Positions 2,895 to 11,941 are shown, numbered from the stretch's first letter. The stretch is DNA of 12,830 nucleotides from Candidatus Woesearchaeota archaeon (GCA_964573185.1 CAZNIQ010000002.1:1-12830); one strand, 5' to 3'. Numbers and translations: made by a program. The notes: generated by a model from the letters alone, not told the origin.

Positions 2895-3719
2895 TTAAAT
2901 ATTTATTCCAGCCTTTTTAGCTTCAACTCTCAAAATCTTCCTTATTTGCTCCGCTCTTTCTAAAGCAACATCAAATATATAATCTAGTTCCTCTAAAGTG
3001 AATGTTCCTCTTCCATATTTCTGTATAGCCCTAATCATCTTGTCTTCTGTAGAAGTTACAGTAATCATAGCATCTGAAGCTATTTCTTCTTCCTTTTTAG
3101 GATCTAAAATTATTTTTTCACCTACTTTTGCAAAAGTAACAGCTATAGGTAAATTCCTTATTGGTAATCTTTGGTCCGTATGTTCTTTATAATCTATTTT
3201 GTCTTTCTCGGGATCATATTTCGGAAATCTAGCATCTAGTAAAGCTGCTATGGCTGCCAAAGCGGAGGCATCATATACATTCCCATCATCATTCATTACA
3301 TAAATATCTAAGAAAATAACCCAAACTTTTTCCCCTTCCTTTATTACTAATTTATTTAGATCTATTGTCCTGCCTTCCCTTAACCCCCTATCAACTACTC
3401 TAGCTAATTCTATTGCTTCAGGTCCCGGAGGTCCGGGTTCGTAAGTTGGATAAGCTCCGGGTAACAATTCTGCTGAAACAACAAGAATACCTTCATCAGG
3501 AGTATCTGGAAAGGGTTCTCCGATTTCCATCTTAACTCCCGCCGCTACCACAGTTTTTCCCCATTGTACCATTGCGGAGCCTTCGGCGTTTTTTGAAACA
3601 CCAAAAGTAATAGTAATAGGTTTTCTATATTCCATAATTGCTCTACCATCAATTCTTTTTCCTTCTTTTATCAAATTTAGAATGTATTTTTTCGTATGAT
3701 CTAATAAACCCAAATCCAT
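2895..3719 (-). CDS. rrp42: Exosome complex component Rrp42 (RNase PH-like, inactive subunit)
   Basis: The protein is 274 aa. [67 protein letters not shown] matches the Rrp42 pattern, including the [11 protein letters not shown] segment, rather than the shorter Rrp41. Confidence 0.85.
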
Positions 3720-5032
3720 TATAGTTTTTCAACCAATTCTTTTATAAAGTTATAAAGCTTTGAAGAAATGATTCCTTTCCTGAATAATTCTTCGAATTTT
3801 TCAGATTCAACTACCATCTTCATTCCCTCTCTTTCTATTACATCTATTTCTAAATCAAAATACCTAATTCTCGTTCCAAAGATCTCTATTGGAGTATTAA
3901 TATTTATGTACTTAAATTTAAGATTTCCATCCTTTGAATAATAATAAACTTCATAATAAAATTCCCCTTCCTTGTATTTACATACAGCATAATCCCCGGG
4001 TTCTATAGGCAGGTTTAATTGATCGTAAGTTCCTCCAGGTTTGATAGGTCTTATAGTTTCCAAAACAAATTTGTTTTCAACTATCTTAATATCTTTCACA
4101 GCTTCTATTTTTTGATGAGATTTGTTCCAAGGCTTTAAATGCATTCTTATAACAGTTCCCCTTTCTTTTATCTTTTCAGCGTTTACTTCTAGAATTGTTT
4201 CCTCTACAAGTTCTCTAAGATTTGGATCTTTTTCTAAAATCTTTTCAGCTAAATCAACAATTATATTAAACGTTTTAGACGTTCTATATTCTAAATGTTT
4301 CCTTATTGTAGGTATAACTTTGTTTCTATATTCTTCTATCAATCTTTTTGAATGATATCCAAAATAAACTCTTGCTACGATTTTCTCTTCAAATTCTTTC
4401 TTTTCAAACTTTTCATATAACGCATCTATTTCTTTCTTAATATCTTCTATTTTAGCTTTTGCTGAAGAAGGTTTAAAATAAATTCCAAATCCTGGTTTTG
4501 CTTTTTCTTGAAGAACTTTCTCCAATTCTAACTGTCTTTCTTGAGGAATCTTGTTTGAAATGTTATGAAAACCACCTTTAATTATTATTACATATTTTCC
4601 CTCTAATCTTATCCTTGTTGTGAATCTTAAAGGTTCCTCTTCAACTATCTGAACAAACATCTCTTCCCCTTCTACCTCATTTATTGGTAATACTCCAACA
4701 CCATAATCCGTTTCAATTAAAGCCTCATTTTCTTTTTTCTCTATTAATTTTCCCTTTGTGATTACTCCTTTAATACTCACTAAAAAAATGCTATCCCAGA
4801 AATCTTCTTTAAAATCTGCTAACAAACGTAAAACTTTCCTTTTTTCACCTTTTACAATTATCCCTAATCTGTCAGGTGTATCATTAATTATTATATCTGG
4901 TTCCTCTTTGGATTTAATACCAAATCTCCGTTGCTGTTTTCTAGAAAGCTGTGTAACTTTATATCCCTTCTCTAAAAGATATTTTATTAAGCCCGTAGAG
5001 TAAATTCCTCTTACTTTAACCTTAATATCCAT
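3719..5032 (-). CDS. fau-1: FAU-1-like RNA-binding protein / probable ribonuclease (RNase E/G-like N-terminus plus DUF402 C-terminus)
   Basis: The N-terminus MDIKVKVRGIYSTGLIKYLLEKGYKV resembles the FAU-1 family start (VRGIY[AS]T.L). The C-terminal YININTPIEIFGTRIRYFDLEIDV resembles the DUF402 core. The stop overlaps the Rrp42 ATG in a TAATG arrangement. Confidence 0.6.
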   Translation of the reverse strand: MDIKVKVRGIYSTGLIKYLLEKGYKVTQLSRKQQRRFGIKSKEEPDIIINDTPDRLGIIVKGEKRKVLRLLADFKEDFWDSIFLVSIKGVITKGKLIEKKENEALIETDYGVGVLPINEVEGEEMFVQIVEEEPLRFTTRIRLEGKYVIIIKGGFHNISNKIPQERQLELEKVLQEKAKPGFGIYFKPSSAKAKIEDIKKEIDALYEKFEKKEFEEKIVARVYFGYHSKRLIEEYRNKVIPTIRKHLEYRTSKTFNIIVDLAEKILEKDPNLRELVEETILEVNAEKIKERGTVIRMHLKPWNKSHQKIEAVKDIKIVENKFVLETIRPIKPGGTYDQLNLPIEPGDYAVCKYKEGEFYYEVYYYSKDGNLKFKYININTPIEIFGTRIRYFDLEIDVIEREGMKMVVESEKFEELFRKGIISSKLYNFIKELVEKL

Positions 5033-6096: not shown

Positions 6097-6160
6097 GTTT
6101 TTGTCAGCAGCTACTCCGGTCATCATTCTTCAGGGGGTGCTCACCTACATCATCCAAAGC
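6097..6160 (-). ncRNA. C/D box sRNA (2'-O-methylation guide)
   Basis: The minus strand reads gcuuugg-AUGAUGU(C, 6153-6147)-AGGUGAGCACCCC(13 nt)-CUGA(D', 6133-6130)-aga-AUGAUGA(C', 6126-6120)-CCGGAGUAGCUG(12 nt)-CUGA(D, 6107-6104)-caaaaac. The box order, 12-13 nt spacers and 3-nt D'-C' linker are canonical for archaeal C/D sRNAs. The island is locally GC-rich (31/60 hand-counted at 6101-6160) in an AT-rich genome. Confidence 0.8.
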
Positions 6161-6170
6161 TTTTATATAT
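6161..6170 (+). promoter_or_regulatory. TATA-like box (TTTTATATAT) for the plus-strand peptidase gene
   Basis: The box is centred about 25 nt upstream of ATG 6189, consistent with a leaderless archaeal transcript. Confidence 0.35.
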
Positions 6171-6188: not shown

Positions 6189-6917
6189 ATGCTCGAAATA
6201 CCGTTCTTATTAATAATGTCTATTGAGGATTTTCTTAAAAAGGATGTTCATGATTTTCTTATTTATTCATTCTTATTTTATTCTTTTCTAAAATTTTTAT
6301 CGAATTTTTCCTTAAATTTCTCTCTTTTACTTGCATTATTCTTCATTATTTTCTTTTTAATAGGATATTTTAAAAGATTATGGGCTATAGGTGATTTATA
6401 TATTTTTATCTCAATTTCACTATTATTGTATACTTTCCAAGATCCCTTAATTTACTTATATTTTATAATTTCTCTTTCTATATCTCTTATTATCTTTTCT
6501 CTCTTTTATTTCTTAATCTTCATTAGAAAAATAAAAATAAATAAAAAAGATCTTCTATATTTTTTGTTCTCAATACCTTTGTTTTTTATAAACATTAAGT
6601 TAGCTGCTCTGCTTCTTTTGGCAATTCTAGCTTTCATTCTTTATAAAGAAAATCAGATGATTTTTGAAAGAAAACCAGAAGAATTAGTAGAAGGAGACTG
6701 GGTTGCAGAGGATATTATAGTTAATGGAAAAATTGTTATAAGTAAAAATAATCCGGGTTTAACAAAAAAGGATATTGAGTTTTTGAAAAAATTGTATAAA
6801 CAAGGTAAAATAAAGAAAATAAAGGTTATAGAAGGTATACCAATGGTTCCAGCTATATTTATTGCATATCTTCTAACGATCCTTCTTAAAAATAAAGTTC
6901 TTTATTTAATCCTATGA
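6189..6917 (+). CDS. A24-family prepilin/preflagellin peptidase-like polytopic membrane protein
   Basis: It is a multi-TM protein. The N-terminal LLIMSIEDFLKKDVHDF resembles the first catalytic-Asp motif of archaeal FlaK/PibD (..YYDlk.reipd). LWAIGDLYIF resembles the GxGD second Asp motif. The soluble C-terminal insert plus final TM (EGIPMVPAIFIAYLL) resembles archaeal A24 C-terminal domains. I place the start at ATG 6189, not the track's TTG at 6060. Confidence 0.6.
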   Translation: MLEIPFLLIMSIEDFLKKDVHDFLIYSFLFYSFLKFLSNFSLNFSLLLALFFIIFFLIGYFKRLWAIGDLYIFISISLLLYTFQDPLIYLYFIISLSISLIIFSLFYFLIFIRKIKINKKDLLYFLFSIPLFFINIKLAALLLLAILAFILYKENQMIFERKPEELVEGDWVAEDIIVNGKIVISKNNPGLTKKDIEFLKKLYKQGKIKKIKVIEGIPMVPAIFIAYLLTILLKNKVLYLIL

Positions 6918-7945
6918 AGGTACTTGAATTAGATAAGGATTATGCAAAAATAAAAATTACAGATTTCGAGGATTTATGGATACTTTATACTATCCTAGAT
7001 AAAAATACTTGCGTTGCTGGGCAGACTTATAGAGTTATAAAAGGTGAGGGGAAAAAAGAAAAAGTAAAAGTTTGGTTAAAAATAAAAGTAGAGGAAGCTA
7101 AGTTTGATGAATTGACTAAAAGCTTAAAAATAAGGGGAAAAATAATAGAAGGGCCAGAGGATATTCCCAAGGGCTATCATACTTTTGATATAAATGTTGG
7201 AAGTATTATTGAGATTTATAAGGAGTTTGATAAAGAAGAGATAAATGAACTATTAAAATCTGAGAAAGAAAAAGATAAAATTTTATTAATATCATTTGAT
7301 AATTATGAATGCGCGATAGCATTGATATCTAACTTTGATTATCAGCTATTAGATTATTTTGAATCTGAAATTTCTAAAGAAAATTATGAAAATGAGAAAT
7401 TACAATATTATTCAAAAATATATCAAAAAATAAAAGAGTATAGCGAAAAATACAATGTTAAATTGATAATTTTAGCTTCACCTATATTTTGGAAAAATGA
7501 TTTGCTAGAATACATAAAAAAGAAAGATCCAGAATTGATAAAGAAAATAAGGTTAATGGATATCTCCTATGGGGGAGAACATGGGATTAGAGAAGCTTTA
7601 AGGAGAAAAGAATTCTTGAGAATAATAGAAGAATTTGAGGTTTCAAAAATAAATGATATTTTTCAAGAATTTTTATATAGATTGTCCAAAGGAGAAAGAA
7701 TCGCGTATGGATATGAAAATGTTAAAATAGCTATAGATTCAAATGCTGTAGAAAAAATATTAATAACTGAAGATTTTATATATAAAGCTTGGAGAGAAGA
7801 TTTTATTAATGAATTAAAAAATTATATAAAAAAGGCAAGAAGGCAAAAAGCAGAAGTTTTTTTCGTAAGAAAGGGTTTCGAAAATTATGATATGATACAA
7901 AAATTGGGAGGGATAATAGCTTTATTAAGGTTCGACATATTTTAG
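6914..7945 (+). CDS. pelA: Pelota (Dom34 homolog), ribosome rescue / no-go decay factor
   Basis: The protein is 343 aa. The N-terminus has FEDLWILYTIL and a following TYRV segment, and the C-terminal eRF1-like domain ends GGIIALLRF. The ATGA start overlaps the stop of the upstream gene. Confidence 0.85.
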   Translation: MKVLELDKDYAKIKITDFEDLWILYTILDKNTCVAGQTYRVIKGEGKKEKVKVWLKIKVEEAKFDELTKSLKIRGKIIEGPEDIPKGYHTFDINVGSIIEIYKEFDKEEINELLKSEKEKDKILLISFDNYECAIALISNFDYQLLDYFESEISKENYENEKLQYYSKIYQKIKEYSEKYNVKLIILASPIFWKNDLLEYIKKKDPELIKKIRLMDISYGGEHGIREALRRKEFLRIIEEFEVSKINDIFQEFLYRLSKGERIAYGYENVKIAIDSNAVEKILITEDFIYKAWREDFINELKNYIKKARRQKAEVFFVRKGFENYDMIQKLGGIIALLRFDIF

Positions 7946-7948
7946 TAT

Positions 7949-8815
7949 ATGCGAATCTGGGCTTTCTTCATAATACTAGCATTTGTTTTCTTAGCAATGG
8001 TTTTAGTGATACCGTTAAAATATAAAGAACAGTTAATAGGAGAGAAGCTGATACAAACTAATAATACGACTACAAAAGAACTAGTTTTTTACAAATACTC
8101 TACTGAAAATATTCTTTTAACAAAGGAATATTACAAAGTTACTTTATTAGAAAACTATACTGTTAAATTTAAGAAAGTTCTAACTGAAAGAAAAATAATA
8201 GAATTATATGCCGATATTTTTGATTCTTCTAAAAGATGCTTTGAAACGAATTGCGAATATAAAGTTCTGGAGGGTACTGTTGTTAAGGAGGATAACAAAA
8301 TCTGTGTTCCAATTCCAAAAAATCCTTTCCAAAGAAATTATGCTAAAGTTGAAATTCTATGCTATTCTTACGAAAAACCTGCTTTAAAATTTTATTTAGA
8401 TCTTGGAGGCTACATAACATTGAATATACAATCAGACATCAACTCTTGTTATTTAAAAATTGGAAATCAAATGTATTATTTATCTCCTTGTTCTAAAGAG
8501 CTTAATACATTTTTAGAAAAAGCCGAGATAGAGTTAATACCTGAAAGTGAAGGTACTATAAAAGAACTATCGATCAAAACAAAATTAATAGGAGGCAAAT
8601 ATTACAGATTTTTTAGTGTAGATGAGGGAAAATATAGAATTATTATAGCAGTTCAGACAGGGAAAATAAAAGTTCTGTTAGATAATGTGTTTTTAGGAGA
8701 AACAGATGGTGTTCTTTCAAAGGAAGTAATGCTAAGTTCAGGTACTCACGTTATAGAGATCATTCCTGAAAGTGAAATGGTATTTATAAGGAAAATCGTC
8801 ATTGAAAAAATATGA
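7949..8815 (+). CDS. Hypothetical N-terminally membrane-anchored, Cys-containing extracellular protein (288 aa)
   Basis: The protein starts MRIWAFFIILAFVFLAMVLVIPL, a single N-terminal hydrophobic helix. The body is beta-rich, with 7 Cys and N-x-T sequons. The gap to Pelota is 3 nt and the stop overlaps the next ATG. I recognise no family. Confidence 0.6.
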   Translation: MRIWAFFIILAFVFLAMVLVIPLKYKEQLIGEKLIQTNNTTTKELVFYKYSTENILLTKEYYKVTLLENYTVKFKKVLTERKIIELYADIFDSSKRCFETNCEYKVLEGTVVKEDNKICVPIPKNPFQRNYAKVEILCYSYEKPALKFYLDLGGYITLNIQSDINSCYLKIGNQMYYLSPCSKELNTFLEKAEIELIPESEGTIKELSIKTKLIGGKYYRFFSVDEGKYRIIIAVQTGKIKVLLDNVFLGETDGVLSKEVMLSSGTHVIEIIPESEMVFIRKIVIEKI

Positions 8816-10086
8816 GAGGCTTAATAGGGATAATTTTTACTTTAATATTACTAGTAGCTCTTGTGGCTGGTGCTTTTATAATATTACCAAAAATTGCTAG
8901 TTGGGTCAGCGGTACTACCGAAAAACATTTGATATATAATCCCAGAACAGCCGAAAGGATTGGAAAAATTCTTTCAACGTTTCAAAAAGCCTTTGAACCT
9001 GCTATAAAAGCTTGGGAGTGTTTAAATGATCCCGAGAAATGTTATGAATCTCCTTTTGAGAACGTAAGATCCGTAGAATATGAAGAGGTAATTAAAAGAA
9101 ATTACGGTATTCATTTGGAGTATCTAAAAACGCAACCTGTTGTAATGTATTGTAATAATAAAACTGTAATTTACAACGGAACTTTGCATGACCCTGGATG
9201 CTCCGCAACACCTCTAATTCTCCAAATCCCATTAAAAATAAGTGTTCCTGAGACTACTGAAATAAAAATAAAAATTACAGGTAATACTTATTGTCCCATA
9301 TTTAAAGTATATCAAAACGATATTAAATGTTCTGAAGAAAAATTAACTGTTCATAGTTTTTGGAGTGGTGTTATAACGTGTACCATTCCTTTTAACAAGG
9401 ATTTCTGGAAAAGCTGTAAGAGCCATTGCTATTGGGATACCGAAGAGTGTCCTGAAAACGAGAAATGTGATTGTGACTTAAAATATGCTGAATTAAAATT
9501 ATATTATGAAGAACCTGAAATAAAGGTAAGAGTTTATTACAATGCTAGCACGAAAGCAGATTATTGGTTAATCATTACAAAAGAACCGATTTTACCAGAA
9601 GATTTCTTTAAGTATTATCAATTACCAATGTCAAAATACGCTGTATCAAGATATACTGGGCTGAACGGTCTAGTCCCAGCAATATCCACATTAACGGATT
9701 TACCAGTATTTCCACAAGGATATCCTTTCTACGTGTTCATAGTTCTAAGGAAGAATGATAAAATTGATAAAATAGGGAACTTGGTTATAACTTTCGAGAA
9801 TGTTAAATGTGAAGCTATAGAAGATATATCGTTACCTAAAGATTTGGGAGTAAAATACGCTAAAATAAAAGTTTCAGACGGATGTCAAATAAAAATTTCA
9901 GGAGATTTTACAAAAATTGTAAACATTTTAAACGATAAAGAAGAATTTGTATTTGGTATAAAATTAAATCCCAAAGTAGAGAATGCGGATTATAAAGAAA
10001 TACATATAATTACTATAGTAGATTACGTAGCTTATAAAGAGCAGAAGGTGACAGGAAAAGTAAACGTTATATTTACGAAAACATAA
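8812..10086 (+). CDS. Hypothetical Cys-rich exported protein with a class III (type IV pilin-like) signal peptide (424 aa)
   Basis: The N-terminus MRG/LIGIIFTLILLVALVAGAFIIL fits the archaeal prepilin pattern [KR]-G-[hydrophobic] followed by a helix of about 20 aa. The protein has about 16 Cys, including the cluster CKSHCYWDTEECPENEKCDC. I recognise no family. Confidence 0.6.
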   Translation: MRGLIGIIFTLILLVALVAGAFIILPKIASWVSGTTEKHLIYNPRTAERIGKILSTFQKAFEPAIKAWECLNDPEKCYESPFENVRSVEYEEVIKRNYGIHLEYLKTQPVVMYCNNKTVIYNGTLHDPGCSATPLILQIPLKISVPETTEIKIKITGNTYCPIFKVYQNDIKCSEEKLTVHSFWSGVITCTIPFNKDFWKSCKSHCYWDTEECPENEKCDCDLKYAELKLYYEEPEIKVRVYYNASTKADYWLIITKEPILPEDFFKYYQLPMSKYAVSRYTGLNGLVPAISTLTDLPVFPQGYPFYVFIVLRKNDKIDKIGNLVITFENVKCEAIEDISLPKDLGVKYAKIKVSDGCQIKISGDFTKIVNILNDKEEFVFGIKLNPKVENADYKEIHIITIVDYVAYKEQKVTGKVNVIFTKT

Positions 10087-10096
10087 ATAAAGAACT

Positions 10097-11002
10097 ATGA
10101 GAAAATATCTTCCTTTGTTGCTAACAGCAATATTATTTACCTTGGGATGCCCTCAAATGCAAAAAGCAAGCGCTCAAAATGTTCAACCACAAGCACAATG
10201 TAGCTTGGCACCAGGGCAAGGAGTAATAGTTCAACCTTTAGGAGGAGTTCCAACGGAGTTCTATAGTGGAAATGTATATCCTTTAGTATTTTCTATCATT
10301 AACGATGGAGGTGCAGATGCTGTAATAAAAAAAGTCTGTATAAGCGGTATTTCACCCGATTATATTTCTGAAATAAGAATAGGTTCTACTTCTGGTTCGG
10401 GTCCTTGTATAGAAACTAACATTCCTTTATCTGGTAAAAAAGTTATAGCAGGAAATATAATACCTGGCAATCAAACAGAACTAGAATTAACCTTAGACTT
10501 CAAAGATTTAACATCCGATTATACTGCTACAGGTGTTGTAGATGTTGTATATCAATATTCTACTGATGCTTTTATAGAGTTCTGTGCTGCAAGTCCTATA
10601 AGCAAGCAACCCGCATGTACTCCTGGAGAAGTAAGATCTATATGCGTTTCAGGAGGTCCCATTCAAATACAGGATGTAAAAGTTAACTGCTTACCTAGCG
10701 GAAAAGTTTATGTAACAATCAAGCTTATAGCAAATAATATATACACTGAAGGAACCGTTCCGAAAATACAATATGAAGTTTCGACAGAAGGTTTTGGGGA
10801 TGTTACTCCAGAATGTACTCCTCGTAATGAAATCACTGTTGGAAGCGATGGAACTGCTACTATAATGTGTACAATAGACTTATCAAAATATCAGGATTCT
10901 TACAAAAAAGGTTTCATTGGAAAATTAAAGTTGCACTTTATATATGATGCAGAAAGCACATATACGTTTCCTGTGAAGGTAATCTATGTCCCGCAATCTT
11001 AA
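10097..11002 (+). CDS. Hypothetical exported protein with a lipobox-like signal (LFTLGC); tandem beta-sandwich-like; paralog of the next gene (301 aa)
   Basis: The signal is MRKYLPLLLTAILFTLGC. VFSIINDGGADAVIKKVCISG resembles the first strands of CARDB-type/Ig-like adhesion domains. The protein has 10 Cys and is G/S/T/P/Q/V-rich. Its DNA is visibly more GC-rich than the neighbouring genes. Confidence 0.65.
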   Translation: MRKYLPLLLTAILFTLGCPQMQKASAQNVQPQAQCSLAPGQGVIVQPLGGVPTEFYSGNVYPLVFSIINDGGADAVIKKVCISGISPDYISEIRIGSTSGSGPCIETNIPLSGKKVIAGNIIPGNQTELELTLDFKDLTSDYTATGVVDVVYQYSTDAFIEFCAASPISKQPACTPGEVRSICVSGGPIQIQDVKVNCLPSGKVYVTIKLIANNIYTEGTVPKIQYEVSTEGFGDVTPECTPRNEITVGSDGTATIMCTIDLSKYQDSYKKGFIGKLKLHFIYDAESTYTFPVKVIYVPQS

Positions 11003-11843
11003 ATTCTTAATTTTTCTATTTATCTCTTTGACTTTAACGTTAGGATGTGTTATTTCTACTGAAAGTAAAAAAGAAAAATCATTGAGCATACACCAAATTG
11101 GATTAAAAATAGATGTTTTAAACTACAAACCTGTAATAGTTATCCCTACAAATGAAATGGGGATTAATTTAAAGTTAAAAGTGAGAAGTGAAGGGGTAGA
11201 ACCTTCTAAAGTTATAATCTGTATAGCAGGAACTCCTTATGGTTTTACTGGAAAGAGATGTGTTGAAAAAATAATATTACCGAAATATGACTATTTCTTT
11301 ACGATACCGCAAGATGGACAAATAATTTTAAGAAGACCTGTTAGTAAAACTGAAGCAGATATAAGGTTAAAAGCCTGTTATAACTTTACAACTCTTGTTA
11401 ATTTTGAATTGTGCATAGGAAAAGATTGTACTTCTTATGTAAAGTATAATTATAATAAAACGAAAGTATTTCCAATAGATGTAACAAGTATTTCTCTAGG
11501 AGCGATCTCTGAAGAAGGAAATTATGATATATATTATATTACTGTATCTTTAAAGAAAAATGTTAAGGGTTTCTTGATAAAGGATTTAGAGAAATGTGCT
11601 AGGGAGATGTATTATCCAAAAGAAGGAAAAGTTCGTATAGAAGTTCTAACAAGAACTAAAAAGATTATTACGCATTGTGAGGACGTATCCCTATTAACTG
11701 AAGGAGAAACAAGCTGCATAATTAAAGTTCCCAAAGAATATGAAGACGTTCACTTTTGGATACCAATGCAAATAAAACTAAGTTACAATCTTTTAGAAAT
11801 CTTAAAAGTTCCTGTAACGATTGTACCTTTAAAATCAGAGTAA
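10986..11843 (+). CDS. Hypothetical exported protein with a lipobox-like signal (LTLTLGC); diverged paralog of the previous gene (285 aa)
   Basis: The signal is MSRNLKFLIFLFISLTLTLGC. Several motifs line up in order with the upstream protein: KVIICIAG vs KKVCISG, ACYNFTTLVNFELC vs YQYSTDAFIEFC, FPIDVTSISL vs GPIQIQDVKV, and VPVTIVP vs FPVKVIY. It overlaps the upstream gene by 17 nt. Confidence 0.65.
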   Translation: MSRNLKFLIFLFISLTLTLGCVISTESKKEKSLSIHQIGLKIDVLNYKPVIVIPTNEMGINLKLKVRSEGVEPSKVIICIAGTPYGFTGKRCVEKIILPKYDYFFTIPQDGQIILRRPVSKTEADIRLKACYNFTTLVNFELCIGKDCTSYVKYNYNKTKVFPIDVTSISLGAISEEGNYDIYYITVSLKKNVKGFLIKDLEKCAREMYYPKEGKVRIEVLTRTKKIITHCEDVSLLTEGETSCIIKVPKEYEDVHFWIPMQIKLSYNLLEILKVPVTIVPLKSE

Positions 11844-11941
11844 TCCAGGGTCTTCACTGATCATGGGGGAGCGGCTCATCATTGTAGCCCCGCCGGAGGA
11901 TCGGTGGTCATAGGTCCCACCGACCACGGCAGCGGGGCTAG
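11831..11941 (-). ncRNA. Composite guide sRNA: H/ACA-type hairpin directly followed by a C/D box unit
   Basis: On the minus strand the lower stem is AGCCCCGC (11939-11932) with GCGGGGCU (11893-11886). The pocket strands are UGCCGUGG (11931-11924) and UCCUCCG (11900-11894). The upper stem is UCGGUGG (11923-11917) with CCACCGA (11907-11901), closed by the loop GACCUAUGA. ACA follows at 11885-11883. Directly after it come C box AUGAUGA (11882-11876), spacer GCCGCUCCCCC (11 nt), D' AUGA (11864-11861), linker UCA, C' GUGAAGA (11857-11851), spacer CCCUGGAUUACU (12 nt), D box CUGA (11838-11835) and UUUU (11834-11831). G+C is 53/80 by hand count at 11861-11940. Confidence 0.7.

Follow-up and report, generated by a model that had tools for sequence, protein, structure and literature searches.

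The window analysed here is a 12,830-nucleotide (nt) stretch of DNA from a Candidatus Woesearchaeota archaeon (GCA_964573185.1 CAZNIQ010000002.1:1-12830), in which positions 6189-11843 hold six genes, called g1 to g6 below. Our main finding is that the last four, g3-g6, are predicted to encode an exported, membrane-anchored cassette outside any characterised protein family. Judged by gene order, this cassette and its linkage to the genes for an A24 peptidase (g1) and Pelota (g2) are deeply conserved in the Nanoarchaeota/Woesearchaeota radiation. The reading that we favour, with a probability of about 0.5, is that g3-g6 are the local form of a four-part envelope cassette of the DPANN archaea (families famA, famB and famC/famD, listed below), whose products would form an outward-facing, cell-engaging complex encoded beside g1 and g2.

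The six genes were found at the coordinates and with the junctions given in an earlier note on this DNA:

g1, 6189-6917, plus strand: predicted A24-family class III signal peptidase, 242 amino acids (aa), polytopic, with an archaeal C-terminal PepC domain
g2, 6914-7945, plus strand: Pelota, 343 aa, cytosolic, mRNA surveillance and ribosome rescue
g3, 7949-8815, plus strand: 288 aa, N-terminal signal-anchor helix (aa 1-27), ectodomain of about 260 aa, 6 Cys
g4, 8812-10086, plus strand: 424 aa, N-terminal helix (aa 1-34), class III-like start MRG/LIG (the slash marks the putative cleavage site here and below), 14 Cys
g5, 10097-11002, plus strand: 301 aa, lipobox-like signal, two predicted tandem immunoglobulin (Ig)-like beta-sandwich domains, 10 Cys
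g6, 10986-11843, plus strand: 285 aa, lipobox-like signal, 9 Cys, distant paralogue of g5

Successive junctions measure -4 (ATGA), +3, -4 (ATGA), +10 and -17 nt. The earlier note took this tight spacing as a sign of one transcription unit. However, overlaps or gaps of at most 10 nt are usual throughout the window, also between unrelated and convergent genes, and spacing alone is therefore no operon evidence for g1-g6. That the grouping is not due to chance follows instead from the synteny conserved in relatives. The proposal that the block is an envelope module holds for the g3-g6 cassette but not for g2, to which the note had put no name and which is Pelota.

Conservation of the cassette in relatives

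The closest relative of g5 lies in locus L008 (GCA_054017035.1). There, the peptidase and Pelota genes are followed by genes for proteins of 279, 423, 309 and 291 aa, an order identical to that of g1-g6. Between the window and L008, Pelota is 70.5% and the peptidase 47.5% identical; the values for g3, g4, g5 and g6 are 46%, 30%, 30% and 23%. By this comparison the predicted envelope proteins diverge much faster than Pelota.

About 25 further DPANN loci (from Woesearchaeota, Nanoarchaeia and metagenomes) carry a collinear cassette beside Pelota and/or an A24 peptidase, among them L004, L006, L015, L025, L038, L042, L050-53, L057, L064, L065, L068, L075, L090 and L091. Distant relatives of g5 itself were found in the collinear cassettes of a complete Woesearchaeota genome (L004), of three metagenome-assembled genomes (MAGs; L006, L090 and L091) and of the ERZ1426843 contig. 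In L009, a Candidatus Nanoarchaeia MAG, a gene of the g5 family lies about 3.6 kb from Pelota. The families that make up the cassette in these relatives are:

famA, about 390-425 aa: class III signal, long hydrophobic helix, PP-x-[DE]-R motif
famB, about 450-570 aa: single membrane anchor, core and variable C-terminal tip
famC/famD, about 300-435 aa: lipobox, one to four paralogues per cassette

The usual layout is famD-famC-famB-famA, divergent from Pelota and/or the peptidase, whereas in the lineage of the window all genes are co-directional.

The linkage was also approached from the side of the neighbouring genes. Searching genome contigs with Pelota alone returned no locus, and with a two-sequence Pelota alignment the distant L009 was the sole locus. 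With the peptidase as anchor, 80 metagenome loci were obtained, 27 of them with at least 6 kb of flank. Cassette families were present within 9 kb of the peptidase in 11 of these 27 loci, as against about 2% estimated by chance for a genome of about 0.74 Mb; among the shorter loci, eight had famA beside the peptidase and a ninth had Pelota alone, all these counts including near-duplicates and hence being not fully independent. The synteny check proposed in the earlier note thus came out in favour of a conserved linkage of cassette and peptidase, both in the six-gene order of L008 and in the metagenome loci.

These data bear on the explanation that the four genes encode independent exported proteins, for example bindosome-like solute-binding proteins for nutrient scavenging, which lie side by side through genome compaction and have no functional tie. 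Such an origin would agree with the uniformly tight spacing of the window, even between unrelated genes, and with the position of the functionally unrelated Pelota inside the block. Yet order and composition of the cassette are kept across lineages whose flanks and orientation are rearranged, no transporter genes are adjacent, and the predicted fold of g5 is tandem Ig-like and not that of a periplasmic binding protein. We consider independence very improbable; solute-binding proteins as such were rejected on account of the wrong fold and the lack of a transporter.

Some neighbours of the cassette recur as well. Despite changes in orientation, Pelota directly adjoins the first cassette gene in L004, L006, L008, L015, L025, L038, L042, L050, L052, L090 and L091, an adjacency with no apparent functional reason. 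PAC2, Nop10 and eIF2alpha follow the cassette in L004 and L008. In most Woesearchaeota-type loci a geranylgeranyl-reductase-like FAD protein is encoded between the peptidase and famA, and in several of them a PHP-domain protein (MJ0043_C, about 405-417 aa) follows the last lipoprotein; the window has neither. In L004 the two lie at 3180-4265 and 8957-10189, and equivalents are found in L015, L038, L051, L057, L064 and L065.

The exported proteins g3-g6

By hydropathy, g3, g4, g5 and g6 have one N-terminal hydrophobic segment each and no further transmembrane segment, in line with the export or anchor signal that had been proposed for the start of all four. They matched no Pfam or NCBIfam family, which bears out the lack of a recognisable family stated before. 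When PDB sequences were searched with profiles of the g5, famA and famB alignments, no match fell below E 0.05. No functional characterisation of any cassette member was found in the literature.

The proteins are rich in cysteine, with 6, 14, 10 and 9 residues in g3, g4, g5 and g6, respectively. This corresponds to 2.1-3.3%, compared with 0-0.6% in most cytosolic proteins of the window, and the enrichment is confined to the exported proteins. The range of 7-16 per protein given before needs correction, but the enrichment itself is real. The description of all four as beta-rich holds for g5 by AlphaFold and probably, by homology, for g6. For g3 and g4 it is conjectural: the AlphaFold model of g4, made from a 5-sequence alignment, has a predicted local distance difference test score (pLDDT) of 35, too low to read a fold.

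Both g5 and g6 are candidate lipobox lipoproteins. The signal of g5 ends in FTLG-C (Cys18, codon 10148-10150) and that of g6 in LTLG-C (Cys21, codon 11046-11048); cleavage of the signal and lipidation of the cysteine are predicted for both. Most of their homologues have a canonical lipobox (LSGC, LAGC, VAGC, IAGC and others), and the lipobox cysteine is present in 17 of 17 famC/famD members as well as in the extra paralogues of L090 and L091. When 1.84 billion representatives were searched exhaustively with HMMER, g5 had 16 relatives, of about 300 aa each. The family alignment has four invariant cysteines (C163, C174, C240 and C258), and C18 is nearly so. In public gene calls g5 begins at Met21 (281 aa; 10097-10156 left out) and thus loses the signal peptide and the lipobox cysteine. 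The 301-aa start is the correct one, as the alignment with the homologues runs from residue 1.

The hidden Markov model (HMM) of the g5 family detects g6 at E 1.7e-11, and in hhalign comparisons with famD g5 reached a probability of 99.3% and g6 of 96.2%. Thus g5 and g6 are diverged tandem paralogues, and the profile comparisons make both homologous to famD and famC. The structure prediction that the earlier note had asked for gave an all-beta model of g5 (pLDDT 87; predicted template modelling score 0.79) with two tandem Ig-like beta-sandwiches. A Foldseek comparison of this model with the PDB found only generic Ig-like folds, namely integrin legs, transglutaminase C-terminal barrels and Fabs. 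Weak matches to CARDB occurred in 5 of 15 members of the g5 family (best E 0.0026).

For g3 and g4 the relation to the families of other lineages is less clear. By position g3 corresponds to famA and g4 to famB, and size agrees; the similarity in sequence is weak. The famA HMM matches g3 at E 7e-5, chiefly over aa 3-68 (the helix and the next 40 residues), and further collinear segments are below threshold. This alignment begins a few residues past the famA cleavage site, and the N-terminus of g3 is near-identical to that of its L008 orthologue; g3 looks like famA without its leader. All of 11 famA proteins have a class III signal [KR][GA] followed by Q, S or F (KRG/Q, RRG/Q, KRA/Q, KKG/Q and others). 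Weak matches to the carbohydrate-binding region of BcsB were obtained for 3 of 11 aligned members (9 famA, g3 and its L008 orthologue). They hint at a carbohydrate-binding jelly-roll, which was rejected for g3, the match being too weak for transfer.

A word-indexed search of 5.8 billion proteins with g4 returned g4 itself as the sole match, and the search with the alignment of g4 and famB found one additional protein. When the famB HMM was built without X_988, the famB protein of L006, it gave E 0.11 for g4 itself and E 3e-6 for aa 5-111 of its orthologue in L008. The N-termini of g4 (MRG/LIGIIF) and of this orthologue (MKRA/VIF) both fit [KR][GA][hydrophobic], with a leader of 3-4 residues. 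The famB proteins that occupy the same position in other lineages are without the class III motif.

The peptidase and Pelota

The product of g1 matched Pfam PF06819 (Arc_PepC) with 28 bits, above the cutoff of 23.4, and PF01478 (Peptidase_A24) with 16.9 bits, below the gathering cutoff of 26.5. Aligned with two relatives (the L008 orthologue and a canonical Woesearchaeota A24 peptidase), it gave a profile match to the FlaK structure 3S0X at E 1.5e-7. It contains at least five hydrophobic segments, and the two catalytic residues of A24 peptidases were located as follows:

Catalytic Asp14 codon of g1, 6228-6230, plus strand: SIEDFLKKDVHD, D-x5-IPD motif; invariant column, aligned with the first-Asp region of FlaK
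Catalytic Asp69 codon of g1, 6393-6395, plus strand: WAIGD, corresponding to the GxGD motif; G68 and D69 invariant, aligned with GGGD of FlaK

The assignment of g1 to the A24 peptidases, which had been made without database searches, is thereby upheld, including the presence of both aspartates (D-x5-IPD and GxGD). We take g1 to be the class III signal peptidase of the cell, a member of A24 whose active site is intact and which is predicted to cleave class III signals. The class III signal in the source organism is weak, and g4 is possibly a substrate of g1.

For g2 the score against TIGR00111 was 177.4 bits, marginally under the cutoff of 177.65; the aRF1 model scored far lower (63 bits). The domains eRF1_1, eRF1_2 and eRF1_3 were all above the Pfam cutoffs, with E values from 1e-12 to 1e-19. 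By these profiles g2 is Pelota, i.e. a cytosolic housekeeping gene that travels with the cassette and no envelope protein.

Possible functions of the cassette

A hint at function comes from the tips of famB. The famB core is followed by M23 and glucosaminidase domains in L006 (2572-5538, X_988), by M23 in L090 (3368-6865) and L091 (6451-8937), and by an SLT lytic transglycosylase domain in the ERZ1426843 contig. In L051 and L075 Cys-rich C-terminal tails (16 Cys) stand in place of the hydrolases. To our knowledge, archaea have no peptidoglycan, and the walls of bacteria are the target of M23, glucosaminidase and SLT domains. Therefore the distal end of famB would reach other cells, namely bacteria. 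We infer that the cassette may serve host contact, an interpretation strengthened by the peptidoglycan-hydrolase fusions predicted in the relatives.

In the favoured reading, the products of g3-g6 would be exported and remain on the outside of the cytoplasmic membrane, to which a single N-terminal helix would fix g3 and g4, and a lipid-modified cysteine, after cleavage of the signal, g5 and g6; the corresponding signals are present in all four sequences. The ectodomains would be disulfide-stabilised beta structures, as modelled for g5 only, and the four products may assemble into one membrane-proximal surface complex. This complex would face outward and engage the envelope of another cell. Its famB tips could be wall-degrading enzymes in relatives and a plain, fast-evolving binding surface in the thermophilic lineage of the window. 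The adjacent peptidase would mature the class III member, presumably famA in most lineages and possibly g4 in the window. An outward-facing, cell-engaging complex is supported by the famB hydrolase fusions and by the fast divergence of the ectodomains.

Several observations weigh against this reading. The cassette lies in a housekeeping neighbourhood and is apparently single-copy, which suits a basic envelope role equally well. Unlike famB of some relatives, g4 has no peptidoglycan-hydrolase domain. For g3 and famA, as for g4 and famB, orthology is suggested by position, by the type of anchor and by a weak similarity of the N-termini; when the ectodomains were compared without their anchors, the E values were 0.085 (g3 and famA) and 0.16 (g4 and famB), collinear and not significant. 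The N-terminus of g3 (MRIWAFFIIL..) has no class III cleavage motif, and the class III-like leader of g4 has only 3 residues. The one class III signal reported before would be that of g4, where MRG/LIG fits with a minimal leader; the canonical signal is that of famA in relatives. In the lipoboxes of g5 and g6, positions -3 and -2 are occupied by T and L as compared with the canonical [LVI][ASTVI]. Finally, the density of N-glycosylation sequons does not separate exported from cytosolic proteins, and no enrichment was seen.

The main rival to a cell-engaging complex is a housekeeping envelope scaffold, such as a surface-layer (S-layer) anchor or a pseudo-periplasmic spacer, which would be needed throughout the radiation and have no specific role in host contact. 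The cassette is indeed widespread, apparently single-copy and situated among the translation and replication genes Pelota, eIF2alpha, Nop10, PAC2 and RFC. Moreover, predicted S-layer-like proteins are typically Ig-like and tethered to the membrane (PMC5898192), and a DPANN-specific secreted protein, the NEQ255 cluster, is encoded next to Ig-like S-layer-like proteins (PMC6393860). A scaffold is less easily reconciled with the M23, glucosaminidase and SLT fusions of famB, whose target peptidoglycan is absent from the archaeon itself, or with ectodomains that diverge very fast relative to Pelota. Nor do g3-g6 resemble the proposed S-layer proteins of cultivated nanoarchaea, which have about 1000 aa. 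On balance a scaffold is possible though not probable; were it the right answer, the cassette would still be a phylum-level envelope component undescribed so far.

The link to a class III signal peptidase raises a further alternative, a minimal type IV filament. Here g3 and/or g4 would be pilin-like and matured by g1, the ATPase and platform would be encoded elsewhere, and g5 and g6 would be accessory or anchoring lipoproteins. The conserved position beside such a peptidase, the canonical class III signal followed by a long hydrophobic helix in all famA homologues, and the fit of g4 and its L008 orthologue to [KR][GA][hydrophobic] all speak for a filament, and DPANN genomes have been reported to contain type IV filament systems (bioRxiv 10.64898/2026.04.22.720090). 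However, within 8-10 kb of the cassette there is neither an ATPase nor a platform gene in any of the loci with listed Pfam calls. The putative subunits of 288-425 aa are large compared with typical pilins, g3 is without a cleavage site, and class III signals also occur on non-filament proteins, e.g. Sulfolobus sugar-binding proteins. We therefore judge a filament to be quite unlikely. The signals of g5 and g6, which are paralogous to each other, are lipobox-type and not pilin-like. The choice that the earlier note left between a minimal pilin-like system and another envelope structure comes down to a conserved surface module linked to the peptidase and probably not a filament. Taken together, the observation made in that note is confirmed with small corrections, and its interpretation is partly supported.

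No conserved apparatus has been defined by which DPANN archaea attach to their hosts and exploit them. A more far-reaching version of the favoured cell-engaging complex, which we regard as rather unlikely, is that the cassette encodes an undescribed, phylum-wide surface machine at the core of the DPANN attachment or feeding interface. The pilin-like famA/g3 protein would be its stalk, and famB/g4 would carry an interchangeable tip: a peptidoglycan hydrolase, a Cys-rich knot or a plain binding surface. The lipid-anchored Ig-like proteins would brace this structure on the membrane, and the peptidase would mature it with no classical type IV filament motor. [quoted passage not shown] As a candidate module for cell-to-cell contact it is testable in the cultivated Nanoarchaeum, Nanobdella and Nanopusillus.

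Sequence context of the block

The window is AT-rich, with a GC content of about 30%. It is 99.9% identical to metagenome contigs that also encode an intein-bearing reverse gyrase, and the source organism is therefore probably a thermophile. The reverse gyrase gene with its inteins (Toprim, Topoisom_bac, Intein_splicing, LAGLIDADG_3) lies at L001 1-1597, on the same contig upstream of the window, and suggests a hyperthermophile as the source. A strain-level comparison gave 7 differences across 12.8 kb, so few that the ratio of nonsynonymous to synonymous substitution rates is not usable. A viral or mobile-element origin of the block was rejected, since neither integrase nor phage genes are present and conserved housekeeping genes lie on its flanks.

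One candidate promoter element was read from the sequence upstream of g1:

Candidate archaeal TATA-like box, 6161-6169, plus strand: TTTTATATA, about 24 nt 5' of the g1 ATG

If TTTTATATA is a TATA-like box, it would imply a near-leaderless g1 transcript. This candidate lies in an AT-rich genome, and conservation of the motif in L008 is not obvious. A sigma-70 promoter scan was at background (37 found, 32.9 expected), the sigma-70 model being irrelevant to archaea, and no intrinsic terminators were found.

Two candidate guide RNAs flank the block on the minus strand. A C/D box small RNA candidate at 6101-6157 has C, D', C' and D boxes and matches Rfam snoPyro_CD with 34 bits (E 5e-4; gathering score 45). 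As an identical 30-nt core is found upstream of the L008 peptidase gene, it is conserved with the locus. At 11833-11940 a GC-rich element of about 105 nt consists of a long hairpin followed by ACA and then by AUGAUGA...CUGA (fold z-score -4.2). Its 3' part is antisense to the final 11 nt of g6, and the equivalent position of L008 is without it. With sub-threshold Rfam matches to archaeal H/ACA RNA (HgcG/Pab40), snoR9 and C/D box sR9/sR5, it looks like a composite H/ACA and C/D guide RNA.

Two further genes on the plus strand deserve mention. An open reading frame of 65 aa with a C2H2-like zinc-finger motif CKICGYKHKERANVRAHVKREH lies at 1841-2038 (53 aa in the public annotation) and shares 4 nt with the start of the HAD hydrolase gene downstream. 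The gene at 901-1749 encodes a protein of 282 aa with 9 Cys, in which a membrane anchor at the N-terminus is combined with a thioredoxin-like domain (PF25011, VSR_TRX). As a candidate for an extracytoplasmic thiol-disulfide oxidoreductase, this protein could serve the Cys-rich exported proteins.

Comparison with known systems

As anchored Ig-like surface proteins, the members of the cassette are ordinary in kind. What sets the cassette apart is that it is conserved across the phylum and linked to the peptidase, and that its hydrolase tips are modular.

In its two catalytic Asp motifs, its polytopic structure and its archaeal PepC domain, g1 resembles FlaK, PibD and EppA (MEROPS A24). Likewise, famA shares the canonical [KR][GA] class III signal with the substrates of these enzymes, i.e. 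archaellins, pilins and the sugar-binding proteins of the Sulfolobus bindosome. In contrast to those systems, no assembly ATPase or platform is linked here, the putative substrates have 290-425 aa, and g3 has no cleavage motif. A recent survey of archaeal type IV filaments (2026) defines the systems by ATPase, platform, pilin and peptidase (bioRxiv 10.64898/2026.04.22.720090). The earlier note had seen no pilus ATPase or platform gene in the window, and we found none there, in the 17.9-kb view of the contig or in the loci L004, L006, L008, L090 and L091. By the definition of the survey the locus is therefore not a type IV filament system.

Archaeal lipoproteins carry a thioether-linked archaeol attached via AliA and AliB, and AliA and lipobox lipoproteins have been reported in DPANN (PMC12462473). 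With these lipobox lipoproteins, g5, g6 and their homologues share a signal that ends in a small residue and an invariant cysteine. They differ in that g5 and g6 have T-L-G-C instead of [LVI][ASTVI][GAS]C, and their mature parts lie outside the characterised lipoprotein families. To CARDB and other Ig-like surface domains g5 is similar at the level of the fold only, with TM-scores of about 0.2 over the whole model, a resemblance that gives it neither family membership nor function.

The 'putative secretion system' arCOG01314 (Makarova et al. 2015, PMC5898192) was considered and rejected, its defining MoxR ATPase and vWA proteins being absent here. A study of Nanobdella surface proteins does not mention the cassette. 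A possible counterpart is cls.004306 (NEQ255), a DPANN-specific secreted protein present in 43 of 67 genomes and often encoded beside the Ig-like S-layer-like family arCOG02487 (PMC6393860; PMC5898192). Makarova, Wolf and Koonin ranked the NEQ255 cluster in 2019 as a top candidate for experimental study (PMC6393860). Compared by description only, its composition matches that of the cassette, and the NEQ255/arCOG02487 neighbourhood may be the same cassette.

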